Below are positions 32,049 through 60,194 of a stretch of DNA of 64,000 bases, in pieces. The notes under the pieces were generated by a model. That model was not told the DNA's origin and searched no databases. It saw only the letters and a program-made list of their open reading frames with translations. Positions within the stretch are counted from its first letter, which is position 1, and each line of letters opens with the position of its first letter. The stretch covers positions 85,800 through 149,799 of the forward strand of contig JBBTRB010000003.1 in assembly GCA_038065395.1 (NCBI GenBank), read 5' to 3'. This DNA is from Patescibacteria group bacterium (GTDB lineage Bacteria; Patescibacteriota; Minisyncoccia; Phycocordibacterales; PALSA-1337). Both the position numbers and the translations under genes were made by a program.

Positions 32049-32286
32049 AAGTATTCTTTATATTAAACAAAACTTTTCGTTATTAGGGATGTGGAAAAGT
32101 GGATAACGTGATAAAAAGGCTCAACGGTAAGGTCAAATGAGAAGATCTATTCTGGGTATAACCTGAAGATCTTCGGGTGGTGTGTGAGTAGGTTCTCATG
32201 GTGGTGAAGTTATACTATTCTTATTCCTGATTTGTTCCGTACTTATTATCGACTTTTCCTTGAGATAACCACAGGTTAATCCACAG
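32049..32286. promoter_or_regulatory. putative oriC segment: DnaA-box cluster in the dnaA-dnaN gap
   Basis: tgtggaaaa, agtggataa, ataaccaca and taatccaca (each 1-2 mismatches from TTATCCACA/TGTGGATAA), plus the AT-rich stretch tctttatattaaacaaaac. Confidence 0.5.
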
Positions 32287-33747: not shown

Positions 33748-33916
33748 GCGCCGGCGCAGGAGGCGTGTTGTCTCAACCCACGATCGACTTTGCTCACAAG
33801 AACTGAACTGTTCGCAAAGTCGTCTTTTCTCGGCGACGTCTAAGGTAGTCATTATTATCCTTGTGGACACGTCGCCTGCGAAGAGGGTTTCGTCAACACG
33901 CCTCCTGCGCCGGCGC
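33748..33916. repeat. three-stem structured element, copy A (23-bp perfect terminal inverted repeats GCGCCGGCGCAGGAGGCGTGTTG)
   Basis: Outer stem 33748-33770 with 33894-33916. The inner hairpins GACTTTGC...GCAAAGTC and GGCGACGT...ACGTCGCC are homologous to copy B at 49657-49808. Confidence 0.6.
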
Positions 33917-35258: not shown

Positions 35259-35446
35259 TTGTCATCCCCGCGAAAGCGGGGATCCAGAGGCAAGGGCGTG
35301 GCTACTGACTTATATCTATATCATCACAAACTATTAGGGACCATCCCTGTAATTGCATGCCGAACCTGTCACGTTCAGCGAAGATATAGATTAATCGGAC
35401 TATATACTGGAAGTGATCCTGGATCCCCGCTTTCGCGGGGATGACA
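35259..35446. mobile_element. MITE-like element: hairpin TIRs around a 125-bp ORF-less core
   Basis: tgtcatccccgcgaaagcggggatccagagg ... atcctggatccccgctttcgcggggatgaca; the core is about 78% identical to the reverse complement of the 62618-62804 core. Confidence 0.6.
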
Positions 35447-35451: not shown

Positions 35452-36747
35452 CTAATTACTGGACACCAGATCCAACGACCACAATGATAGGTCGTTTTTG
35501 TTCATGAAGAAAAGGAAGTCGTCACGTTCGTCGAGTTGAAGATTGAAAGAGTTGATGATTCGATCTGCCTTGTCAGAGAGCGAAGTCACAAGACGCACCT
35601 CACCTGTCGTTGCATTCACATCCCATATTTTGTCACTGGTTGATACAGTCCCCTTGTACCAGTCATCTGGATACGAAGCGTCGGGGAAAGATGTAGGAAC
35701 CCCACAATAGACGATGTGTTTGTAGAAATTACCCCAGACACATTTCTCGGCAAGCGTTTTGATACCTGGATCGAGGGTCTTTTCGGTACTGACAGTGTAG
35801 AGTGCCGAAGAGATCATTCCTGCCTGGTCGGTGAATGAAGCGAAGACCTGTTTTGCATCATGACTAGTACGAGTGGTAAGACCGACGGTTGGGCCGAGGA
35901 CTTTCTTCCATATACCGGTCTTTGGATTGACGAAATAGAGGAAGCCGCTTTGTTGAGAAGATGCTTTTGTAGTAAGGGTGATGGTGTTCTCTTCTGGCCA
36001 TTCGGCTACGAGCTGTGTCAGAGGTGTGTCGAATATACGTGTGATAGCCGAACCCTGGAATGTAGAGACGTACCCAACTCCCCTACCGTTCTCCTCGATG
36101 AGCATGAATACCTTGTCCTTTCGGGGTGAGGTTGCATACGAGATGATATTCGGAGGGAGTTTTTGACCCTTGAGTTCATACGGAGTTGTGCCAAGAGACT
36201 CTGGTGTCGAGGTGCCAACAGTCTTGGTTCGGATCAGTCCTGCATAAAGAGTTGTTGCTACCTCGGTGGTTTCTTCGAGTACAGAGGCGATGAATGCTGA
36301 CAGGTCTCTGTTCCATAGGCTCGTATAGGTGCGCGGTACAACTGTGTTGGAGAGTACGGAGGTGTCGAGTGTGTCACTGTGAGCTTCGATGACATTGCCA
36401 CGACCACGATCTACCCAGCGTACGAAGGTGGTCCGGGCAGTGGTGCTCGCACCGTACCCACCGACAGGTGTGTCACTCAAGAGTCGTAGGCTTGGAATAA
36501 CGACGACAGGCTGTTGCTGGGTCGAAGTTGCCTGTGAGGTCGGTTCGCCGGTACTCGGTGTCTGGGTCGGCATGTTCCCTGTTGAAGGACGGTTGAGAGG
36601 TTGGAAACCCGTGATACGACCGATCGGGTCAATGGTCTGGGTTACGGAGTTGCTTGTAGGTGCAATGAACCAATACGCAAAACCCGCAAGGATGATTACC
36701 AGGAGAAGTGTTGCTATAAGAAGGATTGTTTTTTTCTTTGATGACAT
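35452..36747 (-). CDS. hypothetical membrane-anchored secreted protein (T4SS operon)
   Basis: 431 aa with an N-terminal transmembrane helix and a Thr/Ser-rich linker. Confidence 0.5.
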   Translation of the reverse strand: MSSKKKTILLIATLLLVIILAGFAYWFIAPTSNSVTQTIDPIGRITGFQPLNRPSTGNMPTQTPSTGEPTSQATSTQQQPVVVIPSLRLLSDTPVGGYGASTTARTTFVRWVDRGRGNVIEAHSDTLDTSVLSNTVVPRTYTSLWNRDLSAFIASVLEETTEVATTLYAGLIRTKTVGTSTPESLGTTPYELKGQKLPPNIISYATSPRKDKVFMLIEENGRGVGYVSTFQGSAITRIFDTPLTQLVAEWPEENTITLTTKASSQQSGFLYFVNPKTGIWKKVLGPTVGLTTRTSHDAKQVFASFTDQAGMISSALYTVSTEKTLDPGIKTLAEKCVWGNFYKHIVYCGVPTSFPDASYPDDWYKGTVSTSDKIWDVNATTGEVRLVTSLSDKADRIINSFNLQLDERDDFLFFMNKNDLSLWSLDLVSSN

Positions 36748-36749
36748 GG

Positions 36750-37967
36750 TTATAACGTTTTTGCTTTTGCGACGAGTGCCCGAGTGGCTTCTACTGCCTC
36801 ATTTGCTTTTTTCATAAGGAAAATCCGTGTTTCTTCATTGGGGTTATTGATTATCCTGTCTGTTCGAATTTTCTGAATACGATCTTCGATGATAGCGTTC
36901 TTCTGTGTTAGGTCTGCCACAAGAGCCTTCTTCGCCGCCTCTGTTTTCAACATACCTGTTTGGTTATCGTATTCAACTTGTATCTGGAATACCATCGATG
37001 CTTCTTGGCCGATAGCAAGTTCTACAAGTTTTCTCTCTTTGTATTTCTCCAGCGCCTGTAGTTGATCGGGATCAGGAGCAAGGTTCTCCAGCTGACTCTT
37101 TTGGACTTCGTATACCTTCTCAACCTCTTGTACGGCTTTTGTCCAGTTAACGTTAAGGAAGCCATCTTTGTAATTGTAAGGACGAGCAGTCACATCTAAG
37201 GCAGTTTTTCCGATAACCAGTTTGCTGTTCGCGGTGTCGCGGCGTATTTCATCACTGAGTGAGTCGATCTCTGCTTCGAGGGTTTCGATTTCTTTTGCAA
37301 GTTCTTCGTCGGATAAGGATGAATTCTTCTTGAGCTCCTCTATTTCAGTAGCGGCACGAACGATGAGTGCTGTACGTTCAGCGTTTTTCTTCTCTGTATC
37401 AGTAAGCATTTTCTGAGTTTCGGCCATATTGGTACGGAAAGCAGAGGCCTCTTTGCTCAATTCACTGAATATTCCTGCTGACACGCTCTCATACCGTATA
37501 CTCAACGGAGGCACCAACGTCGTCGGTATTGCCACCAGTCTCGGGTCTATCGTGCGGAGGATAATATATGAAGTAAGGACGAGGAGTAGTCCGAGTGCAG
37601 CGTTCTTGACCTTCTCGAGGCCGGCACCCTTGCCCTGCCATGAGTCCGTACTCATATATTGGAATCCTCCCCAGACGATCATGAACACTGCCGATACTGC
37701 AGCCAGAGCGATGGCAAGGTTGAAGAGATATTGTACGTAGTATTTGAAGTTGAGTTGCGTCTGGGGTTGACCAGCAGTACTTGCGGTACATGGGTCATCT
37801 GCCTCAGGGTTCTGACTCGGCACACACGGGAGCGGTTCGAGCAATGTATATGTGGGCAGTGGGTTGTTCGCAGGATTGCCGCCAGTATTGCCCCCTACTG
37901 TTGACTGAGCATACACAGAAGTCCCGAGAGACAAGGCGATGATCGTGAGGATAAAGATTTTTTTCAT
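36750..37967 (-). CDS. VirB2/TrbC pilin-like protein with long coiled-coil C-terminal extension
   Basis: Signal peptide followed by two hydrophobic helices (AIALAAVSAVFMIVWGGFQYM and LGLLLVLTSYIIL), then about 250 aa of heptad-rich sequence. Confidence 0.4.
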   Translation of the reverse strand: MKKIFILTIIALSLGTSVYAQSTVGGNTGGNPANNPLPTYTLLEPLPCVPSQNPEADDPCTASTAGQPQTQLNFKYYVQYLFNLAIALAAVSAVFMIVWGGFQYMSTDSWQGKGAGLEKVKNAALGLLLVLTSYIILRTIDPRLVAIPTTLVPPLSIRYESVSAGIFSELSKEASAFRTNMAETQKMLTDTEKKNAERTALIVRAATEIEELKKNSSLSDEELAKEIETLEAEIDSLSDEIRRDTANSKLVIGKTALDVTARPYNYKDGFLNVNWTKAVQEVEKVYEVQKSQLENLAPDPDQLQALEKYKERKLVELAIGQEASMVFQIQVEYDNQTGMLKTEAAKKALVADLTQKNAIIEDRIQKIRTDRIINNPNEETRIFLMKKANEAVEATRALVAKAKTL

Positions 37968-37973
37968 AGGATT

Positions 37974-38999
37974 TTAGAATGAAATAAGGCTTCTCTCGTC
38001 CGGCTTCGAGAAAGAAGCGGTGAACGAAGTCGCTGCTTCCTGGAGGATGTTGAGGTTATGTTTGATCTGGAGTTCGATCGACGAGCGACCTTCTTCTTCG
38101 GGTGCACGGAGGACGATCGACTGGTTCTTCGCCAGATCTTCTCGGAGTGATCCGTTGACTGTCCAGAGGTAAGAGAGGTTCCCTGCCCCTTCGACAGGTT
38201 TGTTGAAACCATACGGTACTGCCAAGATAGAACTCTCACGTTGTCGGCCGAGATTGATATTGCTGCTGGCGGATTTATTGAAAAGAGGTCCATAGAGAGG
38301 GTCATCGATATACAAGAGTAACGATGCTGCCTGTGGAGATACGGATATATACCCTGTTGTTGCGGCACTGTTGTCTCTGGTGCGAGCGGTGACACTGATG
38401 GTATAAGGCCGAGGTACGATACCACCTTCGACTATCACGGAATTCTTGCCATAGCCAGATTGGTCACTGATAGCACGGTCGTTGCGTTGCCATTCGTAGA
38501 TCAGAGTTTTGGGGTCGTATTCGACTCCTGCACTATTGGCAAGATGCGGTATGGCGACGATCTTGACGTTATTTTCGAAGACGGGACTGATCTTGCCCAG
38601 GAAAAGTGGCGGAACATAGCCATCTGACTCGAGGATCAGGTCGACCGATCCAGAGCCGATAGTGATGGACTCTGCGAGCTGTTTGCCACTCGGAGCGATC
38701 ACGACGACACCGACCGCCACCTTTTTGCCCAGTGCTGGGGCGGTGACTTCTACTGTGTCTGCACCGAGTCCACGACGTCTCTCCTTGCCTTCGACGATCC
38801 ATACTACCGTGGATCCGCGGATATCTTCGACATAACTACGTACGGTCACGGTGATGGTCTGACCTGGTACAGGGTTGCTCGAAGACAGGGATAGGTCGAG
38901 TCCCCCTACCGAAGCAGGTACAGTCTGCGCGAACGTGACCGAAGAGAAGAACAGAGAGAAAATACAGACAAAAAAGATATAAAAAGACTTACCTTGCAT
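37974..38999 (-). CDS. hypothetical secreted protein (T4SS operon)
   Basis: 341 aa with a signal peptide. Confidence 0.5.
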   Translation of the reverse strand: MQGKSFYIFFVCIFSLFFSSVTFAQTVPASVGGLDLSLSSSNPVPGQTITVTVRSYVEDIRGSTVVWIVEGKERRRGLGADTVEVTAPALGKKVAVGVVVIAPSGKQLAESITIGSGSVDLILESDGYVPPLFLGKISPVFENNVKIVAIPHLANSAGVEYDPKTLIYEWQRNDRAISDQSGYGKNSVIVEGGIVPRPYTISVTARTRDNSAATTGYISVSPQAASLLLYIDDPLYGPLFNKSASSNINLGRQRESSILAVPYGFNKPVEGAGNLSYLWTVNGSLREDLAKNQSIVLRAPEEEGRSSIELQIKHNLNILQEAATSFTASFSKPDERSLISF

Positions 39000-39020
39000 G
39001 CATATATTGTAGCATAGAGA

Positions 39021-39488
39021 CTACGCAGCTTCTTCGTAATCCTGTGGAGCACGAACTCCGTCACTCACGAGGGGCTGGATGCTAGAGCGACTTGGTGCTG
39101 AGGGTTGAGGTTGGCTCGGTTGACGGACACCACCGGCATTAAAGGTTGGTTGTTTAGTGAATTTGCCATGAGTTGCGTCTTTGAGAGAGATACCTGTTTT
39201 TTCTTGAACCTTGAGAAATGCGAGCAGAATGATCATGCCCACTACGATCGTTGGCAAGGATTGCACGATAGGTAGTATCTCTGCGAGACCAGAAACTACC
39301 ATTGGCGCCAAACGACGGGCATTGAGGAGACCAAAACCTTTGTAATAGAAGTACCACGCTACACAGAACCAAAACGCCGGTCCAACCGCGATACCTACTC
39401 CAGGAATGATGCTCAAGAGGTCTGCTAGAAGCGCCACGAACACGAGTATGATCATGGCCATAATGCCTATCTGTGGAGGATTGTTCAT
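39021..39488 (-). CDS. hypothetical small membrane protein (T4SS operon)
   Basis: 155 aa with three hydrophobic helices and a Pro/Ser-rich tail. Confidence 0.45.
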   Translation of the reverse strand: MNNPPQIGIMAMIILVFVALLADLLSIIPGVGIAVGPAFWFCVAWYFYYKGFGLLNARRLAPMVVSGLAEILPIVQSLPTIVVGMIILLAFLKVQEKTGISLKDATHGKFTKQPTFNAGGVRQPSQPQPSAPSRSSIQPLVSDGVRAPQDYEEAA

Positions 39489-39504
39489 GTGAGGTAGTAT
39501 ACCA

Positions 39505-41316
39505 TTACCCTACCTGCTCCAACTCCTTCTTGGCTTGCTGGATCTGCATGACCTGAGCTGGGTTGGTGGTGATGATCTGGTCTTCGGTGTAGGATGCCAC
39601 GATCTTGATCGCAACGTGCTTGAGGCCGACGAAGAATATACCCTCCCCTACGTCTGACTCGAGCAAGAGATACTTTTCCTCATCGGTGAGGTTGAAGGTC
39701 TTCTGGATACTGTCGATAACTGCTGGGGATTGCTTGAGGAGGATCTGGATCGATGAGTTGGTGACGATCGGTAGGCCATACGGCGAGTTCAGGAAGTCCC
39801 CTACGTCCTGGGTGATTGTCATCAGTCCCAAGAAGTATTTGCGACCTCTTTTTGCCAGACTAAAGAGGAACGAAGCGGTGTCTTCGGATTTCATCATCCA
39901 CCATGCTTCATCGATGACCAGGAGGCGTTTCTTGAGGTTCTTGCGGACAGCGTTCCATATATAGTGCGTGACGATGTACATGGCAACTGGTTTGAGCTCG
40001 TCTTCCATGTCGCGCAGTGAGAACACCACGAACTTTTTGTTGATGTCGACGTTCGAAGGACGGTTGATGAAGCCAGACCAGGTACCTTTTGTGTATTTGC
40101 CGAGACGCTCTACCAGAGAGCTTGCCCCTTCCATGCCGGCAAGTACGAGCTCGAAGTCAGAGAGGAGTGGTGGTTCGACATTGCGGAAGTCGGACTCCGG
40201 TGTGATGTCTTTGAGGGCATATGTCTCGGTGATGGCGCGGTCGATGAGCGCATCTTCTTCCTGGGTGAGACCTCCCAACATGATACGGAAGAGACCGACG
40301 AGGTTGATGGTGTTGGAGCGCAGGATGTCAGCCGCGGACTCGTCTTGCCCAGGGATCGGCAGATCAAAAGGGTTGATATGGTGTTCGGAGTTCAGAGATA
40401 TATTGAAATATTTGCCTCCCGTAGCCTCGGCCATATACTCGTATTCTTTTTCTGGATCAATGACGATGACATCGGTATCGAACATCAGTGTTCGTAGGAT
40501 CTCGAGTTTGGTGCAGTAGGACTTACCTGCACCAGCTACGGCGAACGTCACAGAGTTATAGTTGCCCAGCAAGAATCTGTCAAAAAGCACCAACGAGGAG
40601 TTGTGACGGTTGATACCATAGAGGATGCCTTTGTCTGAGGTCAGGTCAAAAGAGACAAATGGGAAAAGGCTCGAAAGGGGCGAAGAGTTGAGCTTGGAAT
40701 GTACGGCGAGCTGGTCGTCCCCTGTTGGGATCACACTCTTGAACCCTTGCTCTTGTTGGAAGAGAGCTGGTTTGACGTAGATGAGTTTGGATTCGAGGAT
40801 GGACTTGATCTCGGACTCGAGCTTGTCGAGTTCGCCTTCGTTGTCTGCAAAGAGGGTGATGTAGACGCCAACATCGAAGAGGTGTTCTTGCGCTTGCATC
40901 AGTTGGTCGCGGAGCGCCTCGAGATCTTGGTAGGCGGTATCGAGTGCAGGGTCGCGTACGAGTCCTTTGCTCTCTCGGCGAGAGATCTGACTCTGAACCT
41001 CGGCAACTTTCTTTTGGAAATGACGGAGCACCTTGGCGGTATCGATCGGATGTACGAAAATAGAGACGTTGAAGACCTTGTCGAGGTTGATGATCGGGGC
41101 GAACCAGCTCTCATCGAGGAATCGTGGATATGAGATGACGAAGAGTGTTCGACCGACCTTCTCGCCGAGGTTGATGTCTTTGGAGCTGACCTTGAGTGCC
41201 GAAGGAGCGATGACATCCTTGAGCTCGAGCACGCCAGCCTGGTATATCTCCTCGGGCAGGATGGAGACGATCGGACTGGCTTCTTTTTTACCTAATAATT
41301 TTGAAAATATGGACAT
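39505..41316 (-). CDS. VirB4/TrsE/PrgJ-like T4SS ATPase, C-terminal 603-aa ORF
   Basis: Walker A AVAGAGKSY and Walker B LLVIDEAWWM. The Walker A sits only about 260 aa from the N-terminus, so roughly 200 aa of a normal VirB4 N-terminus are missing. Confidence 0.8.
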   Translation of the reverse strand: MSIFSKLLGKKEASPIVSILPEEIYQAGVLELKDVIAPSALKVSSKDINLGEKVGRTLFVISYPRFLDESWFAPIINLDKVFNVSIFVHPIDTAKVLRHFQKKVAEVQSQISRRESKGLVRDPALDTAYQDLEALRDQLMQAQEHLFDVGVYITLFADNEGELDKLESEIKSILESKLIYVKPALFQQEQGFKSVIPTGDDQLAVHSKLNSSPLSSLFPFVSFDLTSDKGILYGINRHNSSLVLFDRFLLGNYNSVTFAVAGAGKSYCTKLEILRTLMFDTDVIVIDPEKEYEYMAEATGGKYFNISLNSEHHINPFDLPIPGQDESAADILRSNTINLVGLFRIMLGGLTQEEDALIDRAITETYALKDITPESDFRNVEPPLLSDFELVLAGMEGASSLVERLGKYTKGTWSGFINRPSNVDINKKFVVFSLRDMEDELKPVAMYIVTHYIWNAVRKNLKKRLLVIDEAWWMMKSEDTASFLFSLAKRGRKYFLGLMTITQDVGDFLNSPYGLPIVTNSSIQILLKQSPAVIDSIQKTFNLTDEEKYLLLESDVGEGIFFVGLKHVAIKIVASYTEDQIITTNPAQVMQIQQAKKELEQVG

Positions 41317-41320
41317 GGGA

Positions 41321-41419
41321 AAGTGTAATTGGAACCTAGTAACTCGTAACTAGAAAAACACACACATGGCTTTTTCTAGTTACAAATTTCTTTTTACGAG
41401 TTACGGTGTTCATGTGATT
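41321..41419. repeat. 99-bp repeat, copy 1 (inside the split VirB4 gene)
   Basis: Character-by-character identical to 42049-42147. Internal inverted half-sites tagtaactcgtaactag / ctagttac...cgagttac; contains stops in the VirB4 frame. Confidence 0.85.
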
Positions 41420-42048
41420 TGTATCGGCTTCTCGGTCTCGCCCGGGTTGAAGATTTTGTAGAATAATTCTACCACTTCTTCGGTTCCGAGTTCTGCACTG
41501 CGGACGCCGCAGCGTACCAGTCCCTGTTCGACTACTGATACTCGCTGTTCGAGCTGACTCCTGTATTCCTGGAATTTGTCATCGAGCGATCCGGCATCCG
41601 CTCCCTTCTTGCCCTTGGGCATCATGTTGGCGAGAGGGTTCTTGCTGGCGGTCATGAGTGGTGGATCGTACGGTATGACCACGAAGAAACTCTTGGACAT
41701 GATGTTGGTGCTCTCGACAAAGGTGCGGATGAACTCGATATATTCTCGGACCTGGATCTTCATGAGCTCAGTGAGCTGCTCTTTGTACTGCCCTTCGAGG
41801 AGGGCAATGTATGGCCTGATATCGAGCTTCTTGGACTGGATACAAATCTGGATCGAGAAATCCAGCGAGTTGAGGAAGTTCTGGAACTGCATCATGATCG
41901 AATTCTGCTCATCAGAAGACTTGAGAGCGAAGTTCAGTGACGATGCCAGGATGATGGCACGCATGCCGCCGTTCTTGAGGATGACCACACCATCGCGGAT
42001 CTCCTGGATCGGTACAAAGTTTTGGGTTGATTGGGGTGCTGTAGGCAT
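41410..42048 (-). CDS. VirB4/TrsE-like N-terminal domain ORF (212 aa)
   Basis: NFVPIQEIRDGVVILKNGGMRAIILASSLNFALKSSDEQNSIMMQFQNFLNS matches the N-terminal domain of Gram-positive VirB4 homologs (TrsE/Orf16/PrgJ-type). It is in the same reading frame as the 603-aa ORF. Confidence 0.55.
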   Translation of the reverse strand: MPTAPQSTQNFVPIQEIRDGVVILKNGGMRAIILASSLNFALKSSDEQNSIMMQFQNFLNSLDFSIQICIQSKKLDIRPYIALLEGQYKEQLTELMKIQVREYIEFIRTFVESTNIMSKSFFVVIPYDPPLMTASKNPLANMMPKGKKGADAGSLDDKFQEYRSQLEQRVSVVEQGLVRCGVRSAELGTEEVVELFYKIFNPGETEKPIQIT

Positions 42049-42147
42049 AAGTGTAATTGGAACCTAGTAACTCGTAACTAGAAAAACACACACATGGCTT
42101 TTTCTAGTTACAAATTTCTTTTTACGAGTTACGGTGTTCATGTGATT
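42049..42147. repeat. 99-bp repeat, copy 2 (between the PrgI-like gene and the VirB4 N-terminal ORF)
   Basis: Identical to 41321-41419. Confidence 0.85.
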
Positions 42148-42580
42148 ACTTCTGGTTACGGTTAGAATACATACTCTCTTTGATATCCAAACTCCAGGTC
42201 ATGTCTTTGAGTTTGCTGTTGGAGATCTTGGGGATCATGACAGACGCATAGGTCTTGGCATCTTTGAGTGCAGTACGCGTGTCGGTTGGTCGTGGCTTGT
42301 CTTCTTTTTTCCAAATATAGAGCTTGGCATTGCTGTAGTATTTGAATGCTGACTCGGCGATGTTTATGAAAGGTCTGTTATGGAGCTTGAAGAAAGCGAG
42401 CGCCGCAGAGATACCGAGGATCACCATGATGGGAATGAGCGAGAGGACAAAACTCTTGAGGAAAACATATACCAGGAATGAAAGGCCTCCCCCACCCGCG
42501 AGATATATGAACTGTTTGAGAGTCAGTGGTCCGAAGATCTTATCTTCGACTTCGATGAATTGAGGAACTTGGAAACGCAT
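42146..42580 (-). CDS. PrgI family protein (VirB3-like, Gram-positive T4SS)
   Basis: 144 aa: MRFQVPQFIEVEDKIFGPLTLKQFIYLAGGGGLSFLVY followed by a second transmembrane helix, as in the PrgI family (PF12666). Confidence 0.5.
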   Translation of the reverse strand: MRFQVPQFIEVEDKIFGPLTLKQFIYLAGGGGLSFLVYVFLKSFVLSLIPIMVILGISAALAFFKLHNRPFINIAESAFKYYSNAKLYIWKKEDKPRPTDTRTALKDAKTYASVMIPKISNSKLKDMTWSLDIKESMYSNRNQK

Positions 42581-42608
42581 CGATAGTATTATACCTCACC
42601 CCCACTCC

Positions 42609-43331
42609 TTATTCTATTGCCTCGCGGTACGGATCTGGTCCCGGGGCAACCTTCGGTGCCGGAGGAGTTGCCTTTGGGGTTTCTTTGGTTGGAGCTCCGA
42701 CTACCTTGACCACTTTCTCCTCGGGGATCGAGGTCGGCTTGTTCATCAAGAGATCAACCAAGGGCTCTGTATGAACATCCACCCTCGCTGGCGCTATCGG
42801 CTGTGGTGTAGGTTCTGGATTCTCGAGCGCATCGAGGAGTGCTTCCCTGTGAGTACTGGTCGCAGTCTCATCAGACATAGTCTTGAGTGACTCCGTCTTC
42901 TCCTCTGCTCCCTCTTTCTGAGGCTCTTCGATGGTGAAGTTACCGATCTTCTCGAGATCAGAGATGGAGGAGGTGTATGTAGGATCAGTGAGATCTTTGT
43001 CTTGTTCGAACTTTTCTTCCAAAGATTGCATGGCAGATTTTATCTTCGAGAATATTTCCTTGTTAACGTCATCCGCAATTTCGGCAGATACACTTTCTCG
43101 GATGTTTGCTTGGTTAGATAAGTTTTTCACAAATTCTTTTGAGGGAATAAGGCCAAGCATCACCAAACCAATGAGATCAACAAGTTCTCCCAGTTGATCG
43201 ATGTGGAGTGAATGCTTATCCCCTATCGCTTGAATGGCAGTGTTTATCTCAGGTGAAGAAATAGCCTCCTGAAGATCTTTTGGAAGTTGCTCGAAGCGTT
43301 CTTGAATTTGTTCGGCGCTAAATTGTTTCAT
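42609..43331 (-). CDS. hypothetical acidic protein (T4SS operon)
   Basis: ORF track 42609-43400; start moved to MKQFSAEQIQ (ATG at 43331) to remove the overlap. Confidence 0.4.
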   Translation of the reverse strand: MKQFSAEQIQERFEQLPKDLQEAISSPEINTAIQAIGDKHSLHIDQLGELVDLIGLVMLGLIPSKEFVKNLSNQANIRESVSAEIADDVNKEIFSKIKSAMQSLEEKFEQDKDLTDPTYTSSISDLEKIGNFTIEEPQKEGAEEKTESLKTMSDETATSTHREALLDALENPEPTPQPIAPARVDVHTEPLVDLLMNKPTSIPEEKVVKVVGAPTKETPKATPPAPKVAPGPDPYREAIE

Positions 43332-43332
43332 A

Positions 43333-45213
43333 TTATTTTTTATCGGATCCAGACTTCTTTTCCTCGTCACCACCCTTCTCTTCCTTGTTACTATCGCCAA
43401 CCTTCTTCACCAGATCATCAAAAGATTCCTTGCTCTTAGCCTCTTCTCCTTCCTTGATTTTGTCTTCCAAATCCTTAATTCCTTTCTTTAGAGTATCAAT
43501 TTTAGCAATACTCTCTATTTTTGGAGGTTTCGGTCTTCCAAAACCTACGGGATTAGAATCACTATCCATTTCCTTTTCAAGGTCTTTCATCTCTCGCTCC
43601 ATATCCGCCTTGAGCTTCTTATTTTTTTCCAAATCGGATTTCGCCTGTTTCTTAGCGGCTTCCTTGTTCAATTTTTCTGCAGTCTCTCTTCCGGCACGTC
43701 CATTCAACATGAAGTTGAGTACCGTATTTTCGTATGGAAGATTCCTTCTGAATTCAGCCTGCATTGCCTTGGCATCTTTCTCGGCCTGGTCAGCACTAGC
43801 CTTATCCGAATATAGACTTCTGTTCACTGTTCCAACCCTCTTGTATAGATCCTCTTGAGCTTTCTTCTGTGCTTTTAGTGTAGCTTCATAACTAGCTTTT
43901 TTGTCACCAAAACCATTGGAACTCAAAGCAGACAGTCCTTTTGAGGCCATAAGTCCCAATCCTGGAACTCTACTAGATAATCCTCTCAAGGCTTCACTTT
44001 CATTGAGTCTATAAGCAGCTCTTCCGACAGTGTTTCTGTTTGTCCATCTTCCCAAACCGCCCCACATCCCTGCTGCACCGATCTTATCTGTATTGATAAA
44101 CTTGAGTATTCCACCACTGATACTGACCGCTGCAACCAATGGGAAGTTGAGGAGAACGATCACGATCACCGCGTTGATGACGAGTGTCATGATACTGGAG
44201 TACCAGGTCGTCGAGTTCGTAGAGGCGGCGCTGGCAAGGTCGACACCAGTCAGGAGCGGTGTTGTGGTCAGGACGCTGAGTGCCAGGTACATCAGGAGTA
44301 GATACACCGGCATGAAGACGAGCATGCCCTTGTAGAGACTGGTCCACTTTTCTGCATACTTCCCTATCTCCGGGACGATATGAGATGCGAACCAGATCGG
44401 TGAGAATGCCAGGAGGAAGATCAACACTACGAAACGAATGACGAATGCTAGTGCCGCCGCGGCGAAACTCAATGCCGCAGTGATCATGATCATGATCGAG
44501 GCGATACCGATCATCATGATCTTGATCGGTGCCGTCCAGGCCCCACCAGCTGCAGCGGTCGAAGCGGCCGGAGTGATACTACCGTTGGTGTTGTAGAGCG
44601 CAGGGATCTTCAAAGACTTCATGAAGATATCAGAGAGTCCCCCGTCATTGGATGACCCTATCGATCTATTAACGAGTCCTGCGGGACTGAGGTTGCCTGC
44701 ATTGAGCGAGTTGGCAGGAGCGATCGCATTGTAGAGTTGGATCGAGACGATGTTGGAGACATCGATACCGAGTCCTGCGAAGAAGAAACTAAAGTTGATG
44801 ACGACACCAGCGATGACAATGTTCTTGATGAGCGTTCCGAACTTGGCATCTTGGAGACCGAGGATCAGTCGTAGTGCCGCATAGAGCAAGGTGAAGATGA
44901 TGAAAAGGCCAGAAATATCACGCAACGCTTTCCAGGTAGTGAAGACTGCCGGTGTCTGTTGCAAGAATGACTTCATCTGCAAGGTCAGGTTGATCGAGTA
45001 GTTGAGCAAGAATCCGGACAATGCCAGTATCCATCCTGCCCCCATCTGGATGAAGTTGATGATCTGGGCCAATATCTCGGCTACGATCATCATCAAGTTA
45101 TCAAAACCAAAAAGGTTGGCCACAATATTTTGTGCATGCGCAACGTGTGTGCCCAAGAGCCATCCTCCGAGGATAGCGAGCGAGATTATGAAGATGTTAC
45201 GGATGTTCCTCAT
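43333..45213 (-). CDS. polytopic membrane protein, VirB6/TrbL/PrgH-like
   Basis: 626 aa with a signal peptide, 8 or more transmembrane helices and a C-terminal charged coiled-coil tail (KKQAKSDLEKNKKLKADMEREMKDLEKE). Confidence 0.5.
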   Translation of the reverse strand: MRNIRNIFIISLAILGGWLLGTHVAHAQNIVANLFGFDNLMMIVAEILAQIINFIQMGAGWILALSGFLLNYSINLTLQMKSFLQQTPAVFTTWKALRDISGLFIIFTLLYAALRLILGLQDAKFGTLIKNIVIAGVVINFSFFFAGLGIDVSNIVSIQLYNAIAPANSLNAGNLSPAGLVNRSIGSSNDGGLSDIFMKSLKIPALYNTNGSITPAASTAAAGGAWTAPIKIMMIGIASIMIMITAALSFAAAALAFVIRFVVLIFLLAFSPIWFASHIVPEIGKYAEKWTSLYKGMLVFMPVYLLLMYLALSVLTTTPLLTGVDLASAASTNSTTWYSSIMTLVINAVIVIVLLNFPLVAAVSISGGILKFINTDKIGAAGMWGGLGRWTNRNTVGRAAYRLNESEALRGLSSRVPGLGLMASKGLSALSSNGFGDKKASYEATLKAQKKAQEDLYKRVGTVNRSLYSDKASADQAEKDAKAMQAEFRRNLPYENTVLNFMLNGRAGRETAEKLNKEAAKKQAKSDLEKNKKLKADMEREMKDLEKEMDSDSNPVGFGRPKPPKIESIAKIDTLKKGIKDLEDKIKEGEEAKSKESFDDLVKKVGDSNKEEKGGDEEKKSGSDKK

Positions 45214-46832
45214 GGGTTTGTAGGCGGCTTGTTACATGCGTTTTGGAATGTGGAGGCTTTTGCAGTGAGGTCTTTATTCTCTTCTTTCACCTTCTTCACA
45301 TCATCAGCCGCCATGGTTACATTCATGCGAGACTTGATGGTGGCAACGAGCTCTGATATGCCCAGATAATTCTGGAGCTGTTGGTCTGGATTGGCCTCGG
45401 TAGTTGTAGCCAGGCCACTTGTTTTGGCGCTATTGAGTTGTTGCATCTGGATCTCTGCGTTGAGTTGCTTGGCAACCATCTCTGTGAAGAGTGGCGTGAA
45501 GTCGGTCGTCAAGAAACTGTCGAGCATAGAGATCTGGCTCTGGAAATAAGGCGCCATAGCGGTATTCTCAGGGAGAGATGACTTGGTCACGAGACAGGTG
45601 CGGGCTGTGTCGAATTTTGATTTCGTCTCAGTGAGGAGGGTGACTGTCTGGTCATAGTTTGCCTTGTATGTTGTTACGACCTTGATACCAGAATCGATAT
45701 CTTTCTCCAGTTGTTTGCGAGCGATCTCCCCTTCTCTCCTCGACTCATTGAGTATACGCGCGGTATATGATCCTTTGCCTCCAGAGTCGTTATCACTGAG
45801 AGTACTCAAGCCTTTTTCGAGAGCAACACTGACCATCTTGCTCACTAGTGCATCGAAGACCGCATTGATACTATCTGCCAGCTCGAGTTCTCGTACAGAA
45901 GAGCCGAGCTGATTGGCAAGAGAATTTTCTATGACAGATCCAGGGGTTTCGGTCTTGCAACTCTGGTAGGTGACACCTCCAGTCTTTTTGTCTACTTTTT
46001 TCTTGAGACTAGTACTTTCTCCATCTTCAGCTTGGCCAGTCTGAGCAGTCTGGTTTCCGAATTGTTTAAATTGCTCACCCTGACTTTCTGAAAGTGCCAT
46101 GTCTCCCGAAGTCACATTCTCTGTCACATCCTTGCATCTATTGAATGAGAGGAAGCCTCTTCCGCGGTTGAGATCCATGTTGACCTCAGAGTGCTTCTTG
46201 GAAATACGTGACAGAAGGTCACTGTGGGCATAGAGGTACGCACCAGAATAGCTATTCTGAGGCTCGGTCGAAAGAGCGACGAAGCTTGCCCAGCCTCCTT
46301 GGGAGAAGTCGCCAGCATTGAATCCGTTGATAGTGATACCGCGTGCAGCTGCATCCTTGGTATTCTGGATGATCTTGCCCAAGGTACAAGTGTACCTTTG
46401 ACTATTACGGGCAGACATTTGCAGGGCAAGAGTCAGACGAATATCAAAACTAAAAGGAGAACATAAGTTCGATAGCGGTCCACCTCCCCCGCCCTCTAGG
46501 AATTCGCCGGTTACTTGGTCGGCCGCATCGAGGAAGAATCCGTTCGGGTTTGTGATGAATGAAGGGCTGCCTTCGAAACCGGTATTGATCCAGTTGATAA
46601 CACTCGTGGTGAGTTGGTGGAGGAGTTGTTTCGCGATCGCCGTAGCCGCTCTGTCCAAGATGAAATCCTTCGCATTACCCATGATGTTATGGAAGTTGAA
46701 GTCCGTACCAATAGGCACATTGAGCCCCTGTGCTTGTGCGGGTAATGGTTTGATCAGGGGTACAAAAACAGCAACAAATAGGCATATGATCAGGATTTTT
46801 CTGTGTAGGTTTTGATTGAGAATAGGCATCAT
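45210..46832 (-). CDS. hypothetical secreted protein (T4SS operon)
   Basis: 540 aa with a signal peptide; overlaps the upstream gene by 4 nt. Confidence 0.5.
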   Translation of the reverse strand: MMPILNQNLHRKILIICLFVAVFVPLIKPLPAQAQGLNVPIGTDFNFHNIMGNAKDFILDRAATAIAKQLLHQLTTSVINWINTGFEGSPSFITNPNGFFLDAADQVTGEFLEGGGGGPLSNLCSPFSFDIRLTLALQMSARNSQRYTCTLGKIIQNTKDAAARGITINGFNAGDFSQGGWASFVALSTEPQNSYSGAYLYAHSDLLSRISKKHSEVNMDLNRGRGFLSFNRCKDVTENVTSGDMALSESQGEQFKQFGNQTAQTGQAEDGESTSLKKKVDKKTGGVTYQSCKTETPGSVIENSLANQLGSSVRELELADSINAVFDALVSKMVSVALEKGLSTLSDNDSGGKGSYTARILNESRREGEIARKQLEKDIDSGIKVVTTYKANYDQTVTLLTETKSKFDTARTCLVTKSSLPENTAMAPYFQSQISMLDSFLTTDFTPLFTEMVAKQLNAEIQMQQLNSAKTSGLATTTEANPDQQLQNYLGISELVATIKSRMNVTMAADDVKKVKEENKDLTAKASTFQNACNKPPTNP

Positions 46833-47719
46833 GGGTTTGCAGAAATAGTTGCGAATGTTGTTCCTGGTTCAGTTGAAGTAAATGCGATGTTGTGAGTATC
46901 AAAATGATCCTTAAGATTGAGAAGTGTCGACCGTAGAGATCGTTCTGCATCAGCATATGTACCCAGTGCGATCATGGACTGCATCGGATCTGTGGAAACA
47001 TTGCGAAATTGTTGATTTATGAAACCGAGAGCACTCAGGTTGTTGATGAGCTCGATGTGAATGTTCTGTATTGAAGATGGTGTTGGTATCGAAATGAGAG
47101 CTCGTATTAGGTTTTCGTACGAGACGATAACAGGGTCGAGATCTTCGAGTATGTCCATATCCTCGTCTTCGAGTGCGCTCGTGACGATCTCGAGAGGGTT
47201 TGTACGAGGTGCATGGGTGATAAATGCAGTTGCTACAGAGTTGCCATAAATGCGCATCGATCCAGCGTCATTGTTCGAGGATGCGACGATGTCTGCCGAA
47301 GAATACGCCACAGGAACAGGGGCATGTTGGACAATATCCTCCAATGTACTCTCGACACTATTCTCCACGGCAACACTGTCACTCGACAGATTCTGTTGTC
47401 GAAGTTGCATGTAACGTTCGAAGAAATCTCGACCAAGGACGTCGGTCAGAGTCAGGGGTTCCGAAGAGGATATCTCTGAGGATCCTGATGTCGAGGCTAC
47501 CGAGAGGAGCGCTTTCTTCCAGTCGATCGAATCGTCGAGTGCGATGAGTGTATCATTCGAAGTCGATGTTCTGGCAGTTACGACGGGGGCAGTACTTGTC
47601 GATATTTCAGCATCGGAGTGTGATCGGACATACGCCACAAATCCGGTTACAACGAGAGCACATACAACGGCAATAGTAATAGTATTTGTATGCGGGTAGA
47701 GTCGGGTCATACTCTCCAA
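46829..47719 (-). CDS. hypothetical membrane-anchored protein (T4SS operon)
   Basis: 296 aa with an N-terminal transmembrane helix. Confidence 0.45.
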   Translation of the reverse strand: MESMTRLYPHTNTITIAVVCALVVTGFVAYVRSHSDAEISTSTAPVVTARTSTSNDTLIALDDSIDWKKALLSVASTSGSSEISSSEPLTLTDVLGRDFFERYMQLRQQNLSSDSVAVENSVESTLEDIVQHAPVPVAYSSADIVASSNNDAGSMRIYGNSVATAFITHAPRTNPLEIVTSALEDEDMDILEDLDPVIVSYENLIRALISIPTPSSIQNIHIELINNLSALGFINQQFRNVSTDPMQSMIALGTYADAERSLRSTLLNLKDHFDTHNIAFTSTEPGTTFATISANP

Positions 47720-47790
47720 ATTGTATCAAAAAAAGGCCGTATACACCCAGAATTATGTGGATAGTAGCGAGGTCCGACCTCGCTACTCTG

Positions 47791-48786
47791 CTATGGAGAA
47801 GTTCCGATCTTGAGAATAGTCCCCTTCGGACTTCCTTGTGCAGAACACCCTGTGCCAGCGTATACCATGCACGAAGCTCCACCAGGTGTGTAGTCTCCCA
47901 GAACATTTACCCCGATAGTAGTTACATTATAAAAAGAATGAAGAATACTCGATCCTGTTGTATATAACAAAGAAGTCATGCTTCCTCGGACATCCTGGAT
48001 ATCGAGCAGTATAGATGAGCTGCAGGTACAATACGTTATGTTATAGACCATGCCACCAAAGGTCATTGCCCCGCCTCCTCCGAGAGCTGCACCACCGAGA
48101 GCTGCACCTCCGCCGATCGCTGCACCCCCAGCTCCACCACCACCGTCGTCATCCCCGCCTCCAAAAAATGACCCGACCGTGCTAAATGTAGCTCCAGTGG
48201 GCGTTAATTTATATAACAAATCAGACATAGTTGTATCGCCAGTGAGTTGGCCGAGGCCTGCATCGAACATCCATCCCGAAACCTCACGGTCGATCTCCTC
48301 GATACTTTTGCTGTCACCGCCAGAATTCCTCGTAGTTTCGGTGCCACCTGTCGTCCTTTGTCCGGAGGTGTTGGTGTAGAAATATGACTGATTTTGCCAG
48401 GCAGGAATGTCAGAATCTTGGTTTATAGGTTGATTTTGTTGAGGTTGTTGGGTAGAAGTCGTCACGGGCTGGGTCGATGTGCTCGTAGAAGTGTTGGTTG
48501 GGCGTGTATTCGTTGTAGTGTCACGATATTCTGGTGTGTTTTGTCTTACCGGGACTACCTGTACAGACGTATCGGTGCCGGTAAAAGGGTTGATATTGAG
48601 ACCTGTCGAAGTAGCAGTGGGGACAGCATCGGGAGACAGTCCTCGGTCAACAGAGGAGAAACTAGGGTTATTCGGGTCATCGGTCTGTGTCGTAGTCGGG
48701 AAAAACAGTGAATACACATAGAGGATAACCCCGATCAGGATGAGGAGAATGACCACAAAAATCCCTAGACGTAGTGGATGTTGCAC
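47791..48786 (-). CDS. hypothetical membrane-anchored Thr/Gly-rich protein (first gene of the T4SS operon)
   Basis: 331 aa with an N-terminal transmembrane helix, a Thr-rich linker and a Gly-rich segment. Confidence 0.45.
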   Translation of the reverse strand: MQHPLRLGIFVVILLILIGVILYVYSLFFPTTTQTDDPNNPSFSSVDRGLSPDAVPTATSTGLNINPFTGTDTSVQVVPVRQNTPEYRDTTTNTRPTNTSTSTSTQPVTTSTQQPQQNQPINQDSDIPAWQNQSYFYTNTSGQRTTGGTETTRNSGGDSKSIEEIDREVSGWMFDAGLGQLTGDTTMSDLLYKLTPTGATFSTVGSFFGGGDDDGGGGAGGAAIGGGAALGGAALGGGGAMTFGGMVYNITYCTCSSSILLDIQDVRGSMTSLLYTTGSSILHSFYNVTTIGVNVLGDYTPGGASCMVYAGTGCSAQGSPKGTILKIGTSP

Positions 48787-48834
48787 CTGAATATAATACC
48801 ATAGGAGCGAGTAGCAAGGTCCGACCTCGCCACC

Positions 48835-49644
48835 TTACTTCGCGAGCGCGTTCGCAAGTTCAATCCATTTGCTCACTGGTATATCTTCGGAACGAACTTT
48901 GGGATCAAGACCTGTCTGTTGCCATGCCTGTTCAAGAGTATTTATATCAAAAAGTGCTTCGAGGTTACGGATGGTGAACTTTCTTTTGTGTGCAAAGGCG
49001 GTTTTCACGATAGTGAAGAAACGACGAGTATGCTCGGAATCTGTGAAATGCGCGACACGATCCGTAGAGTTGATACCGCTGATCTCAAGTATCGCCGAGT
49101 CGACTGTTGGCGGAGGAGTGAACGCTCCTGGCGGTACGGTTGCAACGATCCGCGGTACACCGAAAGCTTTGACGGATACGGAGAGGATGCTCTCTTTGCC
49201 GTCACGAGCGACGATGCGTTCGGCGACTTCTTTTTGTACGAGGAGGACCATACGTTGCGGTCTTGGTGCATGTTCCAGGAATGATTCGAGGATCGCTCCG
49301 GTGATGTAGTACGGAATATTGGCAACCACGGCGTATCCCCCATCTTTCAGGCCTATGGTTGCACGGTCGAGCTCGAGGATATCTCCGTGGAGAAGCTCGA
49401 GTTTCCCTGAAATGATCTCGGTTGCATATTTTTCTCCGAGGAGTGCATAGGCCCGATCGTCTTTTTCTATAGCGATGACACGGTCACTCTTCTTGAGGAG
49501 TTCATCGGTCAACACTCCTGTACCAGGACCGATCTCGAGCACTGTCTCGTCTTGGACGATCTGTGATGCATCGACGATCTTACGCAGTACTCCTGGTGAA
49601 TTCAAGAAGTGTTGCCCAAGGGATTTTTTTGGAATTATTTTCAT
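48835..49644 (-). CDS. rsmA: 16S rRNA (adenine1518/1519-N6)-dimethyltransferase RsmA/KsgA
   Basis: KKSLGQHFL, VLEIGPGTGVLT and NIPYYIT motifs; ATG at 49644. Confidence 0.85.
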   Translation of the reverse strand: MKIIPKKSLGQHFLNSPGVLRKIVDASQIVQDETVLEIGPGTGVLTDELLKKSDRVIAIEKDDRAYALLGEKYATEIISGKLELLHGDILELDRATIGLKDGGYAVVANIPYYITGAILESFLEHAPRPQRMVLLVQKEVAERIVARDGKESILSVSVKAFGVPRIVATVPPGAFTPPPTVDSAILEISGINSTDRVAHFTDSEHTRRFFTIVKTAFAHKRKFTIRNLEALFDINTLEQAWQQTGLDPKVRSEDIPVSKWIELANALAK

Positions 49645-49656
49645 ATATAAGATGAG

Positions 49657-49808
49657 GCAGTATATCCTATTCCTCACCCACGATCAGCTTTGCTCACACT
49701 ACCTAAACCGTTCGCAAAGCTGTCTTTTCTCGGCGCCACCTTACAGGGATTATATATTCAATGTGGACGTGGCGCCTGCGAAGAGGGATCGGAACAGGAC
49801 ATACTGCC
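49657..49808. repeat. three-stem structured element, copy B
   Basis: Outer stem ggcagtatatcctattcctc / gatcggaacaggacatactgcc. Inner hairpins AGCTTTGC...GCAAAGCT and GGCGCCAC...GTGGCGCC. The single-stranded blocks cccacgatc, tcttttctcggcg and cctgcgaagaggg are shared with copy A. Confidence 0.6.
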
Positions 49809-49827
49809 CCATCTTGTCACACTTACC

Positions 49828-51747: not shown

Positions 51748-51997
51748 AGAGTGAGTATAGTAGCACACCTCCCACGGACTCGAGGAATTATTTACACATC
51801 ATTATTTGACATTACGTCAAGTAATGATGATATACACATTTCAAATTGACAATTATTGCCCAACTGTTAACCTAGATAAGTTACCTCGTGGGTAAGTCCA
51901 GATAAAAGGCTTAGTAGAGCCATTTGTCGAAAGAAAATCCTCTTCCGGTATAGTTAGAAAATGTACAGACGGACATTGCGCTATACGAAGTCTTGTT

Positions 51998-56946: not shown

Positions 56947-57012
56947 TATACTATTGTTCCTGTTGAAAAAAGAAGTGGATCAGTGGAACGTAGTATGTCA
57001 TACTTGGTACAT

Positions 57013-57636
57013 ATGGTATCTCCCCTGTTTCGATTTGCGCAAAAGAAGAATAAAAAAGGTTTTACACTCATCGAACTCCTGGTAGTCATGTCTATTATCG
57101 CAATGTTGTCGAGCGTCATCCTTGTATCTTTGAGAAGGGCTCGAGATAAGTCTCTGGATGCCAAGGTCAAACAGCAACTGAGGAATTTTAGAACAGCAGC
57201 TGAACTATACAAAGATGTGGTAGGTAATGGTACCTATGGAGGAGGGCAGGTTATGGCCGAAGATGGCAACGATGCAGGTATCACCATAGCCAACGGTTGT
57301 GCAGGTGGAATGTTTGGTCATTCAAGTATTGCTCCCTACTTTTTAAAATCAAATTATCCTGCATATGTTACAGATGCCATTACTTCGCCTCCAGATACAA
57401 ATTATGCATCTTGTATAGCAATTAGATTTCCAGATGAAGATGGAAATATTAGCACGGGTAACGCGACAAGGTATATGGTAACCGTAAGGTTGTCAGATAA
57501 TTCTTATTACTGCGTTGATTCATTGGGTAATAGTCTTACACGATTAACAAATCCAGTCAGGACTAGATCGACTATCAATGTACTAGGAGCCTTTTTTACA
57601 CTTGAAGATTGCAATAGTGTACTCAATTGTAACTAG
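57013..57636 (+). CDS. type IV pilin (prepilin-type N-terminal cleavage/methylation domain protein)
   Basis: KKGFTLIELLVVMSIIAMLSSVILVS class III signal peptide; exact start uncertain (ATG at 56995 or 57013). Confidence 0.65.
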   Translation: MVSPLFRFAQKKNKKGFTLIELLVVMSIIAMLSSVILVSLRRARDKSLDAKVKQQLRNFRTAAELYKDVVGNGTYGGGQVMAEDGNDAGITIANGCAGGMFGHSSIAPYFLKSNYPAYVTDAITSPPDTNYASCIAIRFPDEDGNISTGNATRYMVTVRLSDNSYYCVDSLGNSLTRLTNPVRTRSTINVLGAFFTLEDCNSVLNCN

Positions 57637-60104: not shown

Positions 60105-60194
60105 CGTCATCCCCGCGAAGGCGGGGATCTGCGCACAAGAATAGACAAATATTAACAGACTAGGTCATGGATCCCCGCCTTCGCGGGGATGACA
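60105..60194. repeat. bare inverted pair of hairpin repeats (GAAGGC-loop variant) with a 39-bp spacer
   Basis: cgtcatccccgcgaaggcggggatc (60105-60129) and ggatccccgccttcgcggggatgaca (60169-60194). Confidence 0.8.

Follow-up and report, generated by a model that had tools for sequence, protein, structure and literature searches.

A 13-kb cluster of twelve intact, minus-strand open reading frames (ORFs), located at positions 35452-48786 of a 64-kb stretch of Patescibacteria DNA (GCA_038065395.1, contig JBBTRB010000003.1; hereafter the window, to which all coordinates refer), encodes a type IV secretion system (T4SS). With a probability of about 0.8, we read this T4SS as a chromosomally fixed, vertically inherited system that descends from monoderm conjugation machinery (mating-pair-formation class FATA, MPF-FATA) and has ceased to belong to a conjugative element. 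Patescibacteria account for a large share of bacterial diversity and are host-dependent, and the T4SS is the leading candidate for the organelle by which they tap their hosts. A first-pass annotation, made from the sequence alone, had described twelve packed or overlapping minus-strand genes, and the ORF reading of the window returned precisely these twelve. The same genes are found in independent gene calls on identical DNA in two public assemblies. Intergenic gaps are mostly between -4 and +28 nucleotides (nt), the exceptions being two of 93-97 nt around trsD and one of ~71 nt before g331. Here and below, proteins are named by their length in amino acids (aa), such that g431 is the 431-aa protein.

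To place the locus among its relatives, species-representative genomes were queried with its VirB4 protein, which yielded at least 587 relatives. The best 80 of these (77-93% identity) were used as related loci, designated by L numbers, and all of them come from metagenome-assembled genomes (MAGs) assigned to Parcubacteria, Paceibacterota, Taylorbacteria, Zambryskibacteria or Nomurabacteria, with some third-party annotation records labelled as generic 'Saccharibacteria'. Judged by these VirB4 relatives, the organism belongs to the class Paceibacteria (Parcubacteria) within the Candidate Phyla Radiation. Gene order and median identities were determined on 41 full-length loci from different species.

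The motor of the system gives an indication of its origin. The 603-aa VirB4 matched the CD1110-type model NF045971 (conju_CD1110; E=1.4e-109; 367 bits, with the cut-off at 325; aligned to positions 178-733 of the 752 in the model) as well as PF19044 (E=1e-24), with lower scores for the models of mycoplasma integrative and conjugative elements (ICEs; 249), F-type TraC (170), VirB4_CagE (112), Bacteroidetes TraG (60) and TcpF (18), and with a weak match to CedB (5e-8). The best match in the PDB was the C-terminal domain of Thermoanaerobacter VirB4 (4AG5, E=6.5e-39), the closest plasmid homologs belong throughout to Firmicutes or Actinobacteria (28-36% identity), and the translation has both Walker motifs unbroken (A, AGAGKS; B, LLVIDEAW). 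By these matches VirB4 is of MPF-FATA affinity and monoderm type, in agreement with the Gram-positive-type T4SS named in the first pass, while its 77-93% identity to Parcubacteria MAG proteins would place it inside the Patescibacteria clade.

VirB4 lacks the usual N-terminal ~180 residues. The 212-aa protein encoded directly upstream aligns with positions 1-119 of the CD1110 model, also matches VirB4_plasma (6e-12) and TrsD (NF041427, 3.6e-6), and carries a precomputed assignment to the TraC-like Pfam family PF26593; by these similarities it is a TrsD-like, free-standing homolog of the VirB4 N-terminal domain. The trsD and virB4 ORFs share one frame, and between them lie 93 nt that contain a hairpin and several stops, an arrangement that had been described as a split VirB4/TrsE ATPase. 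Such a layout, together with the several canonical T4SS parts that are undetectable here, could be taken to mean that the locus is a functionless, decaying remnant of a conjugation system in which VirB4 is broken and VirB8, VirB1 and VirD4 have been lost. The ATPase assignment stands, but the two ORFs are a normal TrsD+VirB4 pair rather than a pseudogene, because they are separate in 79 of 79 related loci, with constant sizes of ~212 and ~604 aa. This arrangement is known from the pGO1 subclass and is reported to be, among T4SS components, the one found most abundantly in Patescibacteria (PMC12102498). Moreover, all twelve ORFs are intact and overlap or abut one another, the Walker motifs are preserved, and VirB4 shows a ratio of nonsynonymous to synonymous divergence (dN/dS) of ~0.03 relative to the closest species (L008; dS saturated). 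Decay is thus an explanation to which we give next to no credence, and the conservation data have already effectively refuted it.

The remaining core components could be assigned with varying degrees of support. The VirB3 analog of the PrgI type proposed in the first pass is clear: the 144-aa protein matches PF12666 (E=9.2e-12), has a hydrophobic segment at residues 44-62 consistent with a membrane hairpin, and is found in 41 of 41 loci. The pilin-like protein proposed at the same time is g405, which consists of a signal peptide, two hydrophobic helices (residues ~80-140) and a ~265-aa C-terminal coiled coil that, by analogy with VirB2 topology, should be extracellular. The window copy scores marginally against PF18895 (T4SS_pilin; 27.4 bits, cut-off 26.6), while 40 of 41 orthologs match the same family (best 2.3e-9), one of them also matching PF04956 (TrbC/VirB2). 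A search of the 382 window ORFs with a pilin hidden Markov model of our own making found no second pilin, and comparison of g405 with PrgF by hhalign was negative. The C-terminal module of the pilin appears to be exchangeable, since in the L044 ortholog (12922-13770 of the Zambryskibacteria MAG contig JACOVQ010000008.1) an M15 peptidase motif (HDRGLAVD ... DHWH) occupies the position of the coiled coil; Pfam Peptidase_M15_4 is found in 2 of the 41 orthologs (E=1e-14).

The 626-aa polytopic protein that had been called VirB6/TrbL-like is indeed predicted to be polytopic, with a signal peptide, ~6-7 transmembrane (TM) helices and a charged, coiled-coil C-terminal tail. Its VirB6 identity comes by a less direct route: profile scans gave no direct match of the window copy to VirB6 families, while 3 of its 41 orthologs match PF04610 (TrbL/VirB6; best 6e-5) and 2 of 41 each match the T4SS membrane families pLS20_p028, Mbov_0396 and CD3337/EF1877. 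An hhalign comparison with PrgH of pCF10 aligned 119 columns in the C-terminal TM region (E=0.003, probability 10%); the comparison with the CD1112-family VirB6 was not significant, nor was anything in a PDB profile search. The gene lies upstream of prgI, the same place as VirB6 in pCF10 and pCDC3875. These weak but convergent matches suggest that g626 is probably an 'extended' VirB6 analog.

The comparative synteny that the first-pass annotation had called for argues for a resident rather than a mobile system. The order uvrD-ksgA-[g331]-g296-g540-g626-g240-prgI-trsD-virB4-[g155]-g341-g405-g431 / yidC-rnpA / dnaA-dnaN is kept in 41 of 41 loci, with ksgA next to the cluster in 38 of them, and the transcription unit of the T4SS probably begins with ksgA. 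Since this synteny is accompanied by an unremarkable GC content, the cluster is part of the core genome, chromosomally fixed and not mobile, as had been suggested when it was first described as a secretion or attachment apparatus rather than a conjugative element. Median identities across the 41 loci are 80% for VirB4 (a figure somewhat inflated by the ranking of loci on VirB4 similarity), 63% for TrsD and 54% for PrgI, compared with 59% for DnaA and 52% for DnaN, 38% for g405 and 27-32% for most of the lineage-specific proteins. The same gradient is seen in dN relative to L008, which is 0.058 for VirB4, 0.12 for TrsD, 0.16 for PrgI and 0.38-0.76 for the envelope and surface proteins (dS saturated), such that the extracellular parts evolve 6-13 times faster than the motor. 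The motor is therefore highly constrained and the exposed parts are fast-evolving, as expected of a functional host-contact machine.

We found no relaxase family match on any scanned or precomputed ORF of the window, and profile scans of the same ORFs revealed no VirD4/TcpA-type coupling ATPase. The first-pass annotation had listed both of these as missing along with any integrase; the first two absences hold over the full 64 kb, but there is one integrase-family gene (60754-61785, 12 kb away), which is a full-length XerD/XerC match (E=1.6e-73). As a tyrosine recombinase, its product could nevertheless be enlisted for an integrative conjugative or mobilisable element whose relaxase and coupling protein are encoded elsewhere, as could the conjugative ancestry of the T4SS, a palindromic element resembling a miniature inverted-repeat transposable element (MITE) at the operon 3' end (35260-35446), and a pair of ~112-nt direct repeats, 80-85% identical, in the same orientation and 15.9 kb apart, which bracket the operon and would form the ends of the element. 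Flanking direct repeats had been named in the first pass as a sign of such an element, and they are present, but several properties show them not to be ICE ends: they lie upstream of dnaA and ksgA, are promoter-like, enclose the core genes rpmH, rnpA, yidC and ksgA, and are absent from the 80 related species loci, which keep the synteny. Because the two copies occupy the same position and orientation relative to dnaA and ksgA and contain -35/-10-like hexamers (TTCGCA-17-GATAAT), followed by a leader hairpin with compensatory changes, we read them as duplicated promoter/leader sequences. The XerD/XerC nature of the recombinase, the ordinary GC content and a VirB4 more conserved than DnaA likewise speak against an integrated element, and an empty site, in which dnaA-rpmH would be joined to uvrD with a single repeat, was seen in none of the 41 loci, all of which are filled. 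We consider an element of this kind highly improbable.

The cluster is truly origin-proximal, because the cumulative GC skew reaches its lowest point at 31-35 kb and three sites resembling DnaA boxes (32090, 32098 and 32277, in a cluster spanning 32090-32285) lie between dnaN and dnaA. The proximity to the replication origin noted in the first pass, which had put dnaA 2 kb off, was thus upheld, the measured distance being 1.7 kb. Downstream of the T4SS operon are the convergent genes yidC-rnpA-rpmH, followed by dnaA and dnaN. The uvrD-ksgA-T4SS unit (~16 kb, 35452-51768), on the minus strand and rightward of the skew switch, is on the lagging-strand side, so that its transcription runs toward the origin and meets replication head-on. 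The convergent layout relative to yidC-rnpA is kept in 41 of 41 related loci.

These features agree closely with a recently described group of systems. Quinonero-Coronel et al. 2025 (PMC12102498) reported Paceibacteria and Microgenomatia T4SS with the same components, without a relaxase and near dnaA, dnaN, rnpA, rpmH and ksgA. The locus described here shares with this Patescibacteria clade the MPF-FATA VirB4 with adjacent TrsD, PrgI/VirB3, a probable VirB6 and a PF18895 pilin, the lack of a relaxase or type IV coupling protein (T4CP) near virB4, an undetectable VirB8 and the chromosomal surroundings, and nothing essential differs. It is thus a further well-preserved example of the kind of T4SS published in 2023-2025 (PMC12102498, PMC12857230), and the published picture of Patescibacteria T4SS is unchanged by it. 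Its local traits, which are not discussed in PMC12102498, are a single pilin with a long coiled coil, hairpin repeats in the spacers flanking trsD and an operon that runs head-on to replication. Overall, the locus adds a clean, complete Paceibacteria example with numbers attached (VirB4 more conserved than DnaA, the dN gradient, TrsD always separate), and its small additions are the conservation gradient, a single pilin with a swappable C-terminal module, species-specific hairpin repeats and the head-on orientation.

Comparison with conjugative relatives shows which parts have been kept. The cluster shares with Firmicutes MPF-FATA systems (pCF10 prgD-pcfC; the CTn2/CD1110 type, pCDC3875) the CD1110-family VirB4 and the order VirB6-PrgI-(small protein)-VirB4 (with g626 as the probable VirB6), and with the trs systems of pGO1/pSK41 (TrsD+TrsE) the free-standing TrsD of the pGO1 subclass. 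The Firmicutes systems, however, are plasmid- or ICE-borne and possess a VirD4-type T4CP, relaxase/MobC, the PrgK hydrolase with soluble lytic transglycosylase (SLT) and CHAP domains, VirB8-like PrgL/PrgD and LPXTG adhesins, a set not found here, whereas they have no VirB2 pilin and the present cluster has a VirB2-like one. Of the features of a conjugative MPF-FATA system or ICE, the window thus shows no relaxase with oriT, VirD4/TcpA, VirB8-like or VirB1-like protein, no element integrase with attachment repeats, and no patchy distribution among the related loci.

A functional precedent is Southlakia epibionticum ML1 (Saccharimonadia), in which, according to the accounts of Wang 2023 given in PMC12857230 and PMC12102498, the T4SS and its pilin array were essential for epibiotic growth by transposon sequencing (Tn-seq) while comEC was dispensable. 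As described in those accounts, both systems are chromosomal and of monoderm type, comprise VirB3, VirB4, TrsD, VirB6 (here a probable one) and VirB2-like pilins, and have no conjugation role. By the same accounts, the pilin array of Southlakia comprises 6 divergent members, its peptidase and lysozyme genes, which are also essential, closely follow virB4, and VirD4 is encoded at a distance; the operon described here has one pilin, no hydrolase and unrelated accessory families specific to Paceibacteria.

These accessory families are represented by seven lineage-specific proteins, none of which significantly matched Pfam, NCBIfam or PDB sequences, even when whole families were compared. Topology prediction indicates that g431, g296 and g331 are membrane-anchored, g341 and g540 secreted, and g155 a small polytopic protein, while g240 has one weak hydrophobic segment (residues 44-62). 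Within this set, g341 and g431 are found in 41 of 41 loci. The former has a signal peptide, and the immunoglobulin-like family Ig_3 was detected in 5 of its 41 orthologs (7e-4), with weak PDB matches to Ig domains; the latter has a Thr-rich linker followed by a beta-rich domain with two invariant Cys and a conserved W and D, and hints of a propeller fold were not significant (TolB, E ~0.6; PD40 in 1 of 41 orthologs). PDB profile searches gave nothing significant for either protein. g540 combines a conserved, Cys-containing N-terminal domain with a long C-terminal three-helix bundle. Other members are more variable: g240, without a significant match in family scans, was found in 26 of 41 loci at ~32% identity, tblastn detected g155 in 18 loci and g331 in 6 of 41. 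The g155 gene lies immediately downstream of virB4 and its product has three hydrophobic segments and the family-invariant residues D23, P29, G51 and P79; comparison with PrgF by hhalign revealed no similarity. g331, a variable cluster member with a Cys-containing C-terminus, has as its only family match a sub-threshold hit to Pfam YqfQ (E=0.024), and its gene is flanked by 24-nt palindromes (47763-47786 and 48810-48833).

Structure prediction for the hypothetical proteins, which had been proposed in the first pass, did not supply the missing components: neither of the two hypotheticals concerned turned out to be VirB8- or VirB1-like. The AlphaFold2 model of g296, built on a 17-sequence alignment, has a mean confidence (pLDDT) of 74.7, with residues 130-290 mostly above 85 and made up of helices only, and a Foldseek search against the PDB found nothing at E<=0.001 (best no lower than E=0.4). 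With its all-alpha ectodomain, the absence of a PDB fold match and no hhalign match to PrgL, g296 was rejected as the missing VirB8. A single-sequence homolog search with g296 found only 3 proteins, and its homologs often carry PF18884 in the N-terminal linker (precomputed accession only). No VirB8-like NTF2-fold protein was found among the candidates, g296 being all-helical and g341 and g431 beta-rich with Ig-like or propeller hints, and profile scans found no VirB1-like SLT/CHAP hydrolase domain in the twelve cluster proteins.

Established T4SS architecture, combined with Saccharimonadia genetics (Wang 2023, as related in PMC12857230), suggests how such a system could work. VirB4 and TrsD, docked on PrgI and VirB6, would energise the assembly of a pilus or tube that is built from the VirB2-like protein and spans the single membrane and the wall. 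This structure and the fast-evolving surface proteins would contact the host cell, the variable secreted proteins mediating wall passage and host contact, and the resulting conduit may serve the uptake of host macromolecules or the delivery of effectors, as needed for episymbiont growth. The cell's own DNA would not be transferred by conjugation. Consistent with such a conduit, tubular structures that are possibly T4SS pili have been observed between a cultivated Minisyncoccota parasite and its host, along with uptake of host RNA (bioRxiv 10.64898/2026.06.21.733656). The import hypothesis put forward in PMC12102498 and the Tn-seq essentiality in Southlakia lend it further support.

The cargo could instead be DNA, imported as a source of nucleotides by a dedicated uptake (competence) T4SS like Helicobacter ComB or archaeal Ced. 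As in ComB, no relaxase or T4CP is encoded nearby; comM lies 4 kb upstream (53020-54537); VirB4 has its weak CedB match; and these organisms are without nucleotide synthesis, with PMC12102498 proposing import of DNA or other macromolecules by Patescibacteria T4SS. Against this, ComB- or Ced-specific components were not found, the window encodes type IV pilus genes (PilM, PilB and a pilin), the usual route of competence, and the Minisyncoccota parasite takes up host RNA, not DNA. Furthermore, if comEC is dispensable in Southlakia while the T4SS is essential, as PMC12857230 relates, what makes the T4SS essential there is not transformation-related uptake. A dedicated competence system thus seems unlikely.

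Returning to the fixed, host-directed T4SS that we favour, several observations weigh against it or fit it imperfectly. Most Patescibacteria genomes carry a distant VirD4 homolog (PMC12102498), the essentiality data come from another class, the Saccharimonadia, and the VirB6 role of g626 relies on weak, indirect matches. Head-on orientation fits poorly with the argument that the operon was placed near the origin for high expression. The operon yielded neither a VirB8-like nor a VirB1-like protein, and the wall hydrolase nearest to it, a LysM+M23 endopeptidase (51998-53023, plus strand), is encoded 3.2 kb upstream on the other strand. The M23 gene adjoins uvrD in 6 related loci (within the flanks fetched), and its product is a candidate wall-remodelling partner of the T4SS. 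A more specific version, which we put forward only tentatively and hold to be rather doubtful, is that the Paceibacteria machine has replaced the VirB8, VirB1 and adhesin functions with g540, g296, g341, g431 and g331, that the pilin shows its swappable module (a coiled coil here, an M15 peptidoglycan peptidase in a Zambryskibacteria relative) on the surface of the filament, where it would breach the host wall or recognise the host, and that the conduit imports host macromolecules such as RNA. In practical terms, the locus offers a delimited set of targets (the pilin, g540, g296, g341 and g431) for structural work or cryo-electron tomography, once genetic manipulation of a Paceibacteria co-culture becomes feasible.

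Table 1. Genes and sequence elements of the T4SS locus and its surroundings (window coordinates).
Feature	Position	Strand	Description
dnaN	30945-32048	-	Pfam assignment
dnaA	32287-33720	-	Pfam assignment; 1.7 kb from operon end
g431	35452-36747	-	last gene of cluster; membrane-anchored
g405	36750-37967	-	VirB2-like T4SS pilin with coiled coil (PF18895)
g341	37974-38999	-	secreted, beta-rich
g155	39021-39488	-	small polytopic membrane protein, 155 or 146 aa
virB4 (603 aa)	39505-41316	-	NF045971 conju_CD1110, PF19044
trsD (212 aa)	41410-42048	-	TrsD NF041427; N-terminal part of CD1110 model
prgI (144 aa)	42146-42580	-	PF12666
g240	42609-43331	-	acidic, Pro-rich; to 43400 from upstream TTG (263 aa)
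g626	43333-45213	-	polytopic; probable 'extended' VirB6 analog
g540	45210-46832	-	secreted protein
g296	46829-47719	-	membrane-anchored; 293 aa from annotated start
g331	47791-48786	-	membrane-anchored, Thr/Ser/Gly-rich
ksgA/rsmA	48835-49677	-	PF00398, E=4e-49; co-oriented, directly upstream of cluster
Promoter-like element upstream of ksgA	49676-49787	-	paralog of 33776-33887 upstream of dnaA
uvrD/pcrA	49828-51768	-	upstream of ksgA

Several repeated sequences are associated with the locus. An identical 99-nt sequence occupies the trsD/virB4 spacer (41321-41419) and the prgI/trsD spacer (42049-42147) and is predicted to fold into an RNA hairpin (-26 kcal/mol, z=-4.07). Two further assemblies of this organism also have the pair, and it is missing from the 80 related species loci; the hairpins could act as a signal for processing or stabilising mRNA, or could be an intergenic element like the repetitive extragenic palindromic (REP) sequences. 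A related hairpin with a GTAACTCG/GTAACTAG motif is located at 4054-4122.

For the paired elements upstream of dnaA and ksgA, each core lies inside an inverted repeat of its own (regions 33748-33916 and 49649-49815), the arms of which differ in sequence between the copies and are 32 nt long (91% complementarity) and 25 nt long (88%). Unrelated perfect inverted repeats of 32-35 nt stand at the same positions in other species, before dnaA in L007, L010 and L018 and before ksgA in L019. The element may be a structured leader, may form a DNA cruciform or may be what is left of a MITE. Conserved co-regulation of dnaA and ksgA was considered and rejected: the paired similarity is absent in 33 of 35 relatives, that in L043 is a coordinate artefact and that in L085 is weak, such that the pairing is species-specific.

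A further family of palindromic elements is built on TGTCATCCCCGCGAAAGCGGGGATCCAG, present as inverted pairs 22-131 nt apart at 35260-35446, 60106-60193, 62617-62805 and 19607-19706. The space from yidC to the 3' end of the T4SS operon is taken up by a complete TGTCATCCCCGCGAAAGCGGGGATCCAG element whose 28-nt arms are perfect, and the copy at 19607-19706 lies inside the polA reading frame. These elements look MITE/REP-like.

The DNA of the window is matched by a 761,713-bp contig of the Patescibacteria MAG GCA_964357315.1 and by metagenome contigs from 0.2-um-filtered Hainich groundwater. The proteins encoded at 57657-59441 and 2012-2986 have exact matches on short ENA contigs only and not on the 761,713-bp NCBI contig, which indicates that the window represents a slightly different assembly or strain than GCA_964357315.1.

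Elsewhere in the window, the type IV pilus genes are dispersed: PilM with two downstream small genes is encoded at 903-2986, a PilB/GspE-type ATPase at 23225-24970 (E=1e-135), and a prepilin with an N-methylation motif at 56899-57636, beside two large proteins, one without a family match (55009-56946) and one with a sub-threshold glycosyltransferase family 2 (GT2) match only (57657-59441). The ComM/Mg-chelatase-like ATPase gene, on the minus strand, lies just beyond uvrD together with the LysM+M23 gene. At the gathering threshold, Rfam detected four tRNAs only in the window. Lastly, genes for a RhuM-family protein (6100-7119; E=2e-102) and a PemK-type toxin (17016-17426) are found among housekeeping genes and may be small mobile or defence-related insertions.

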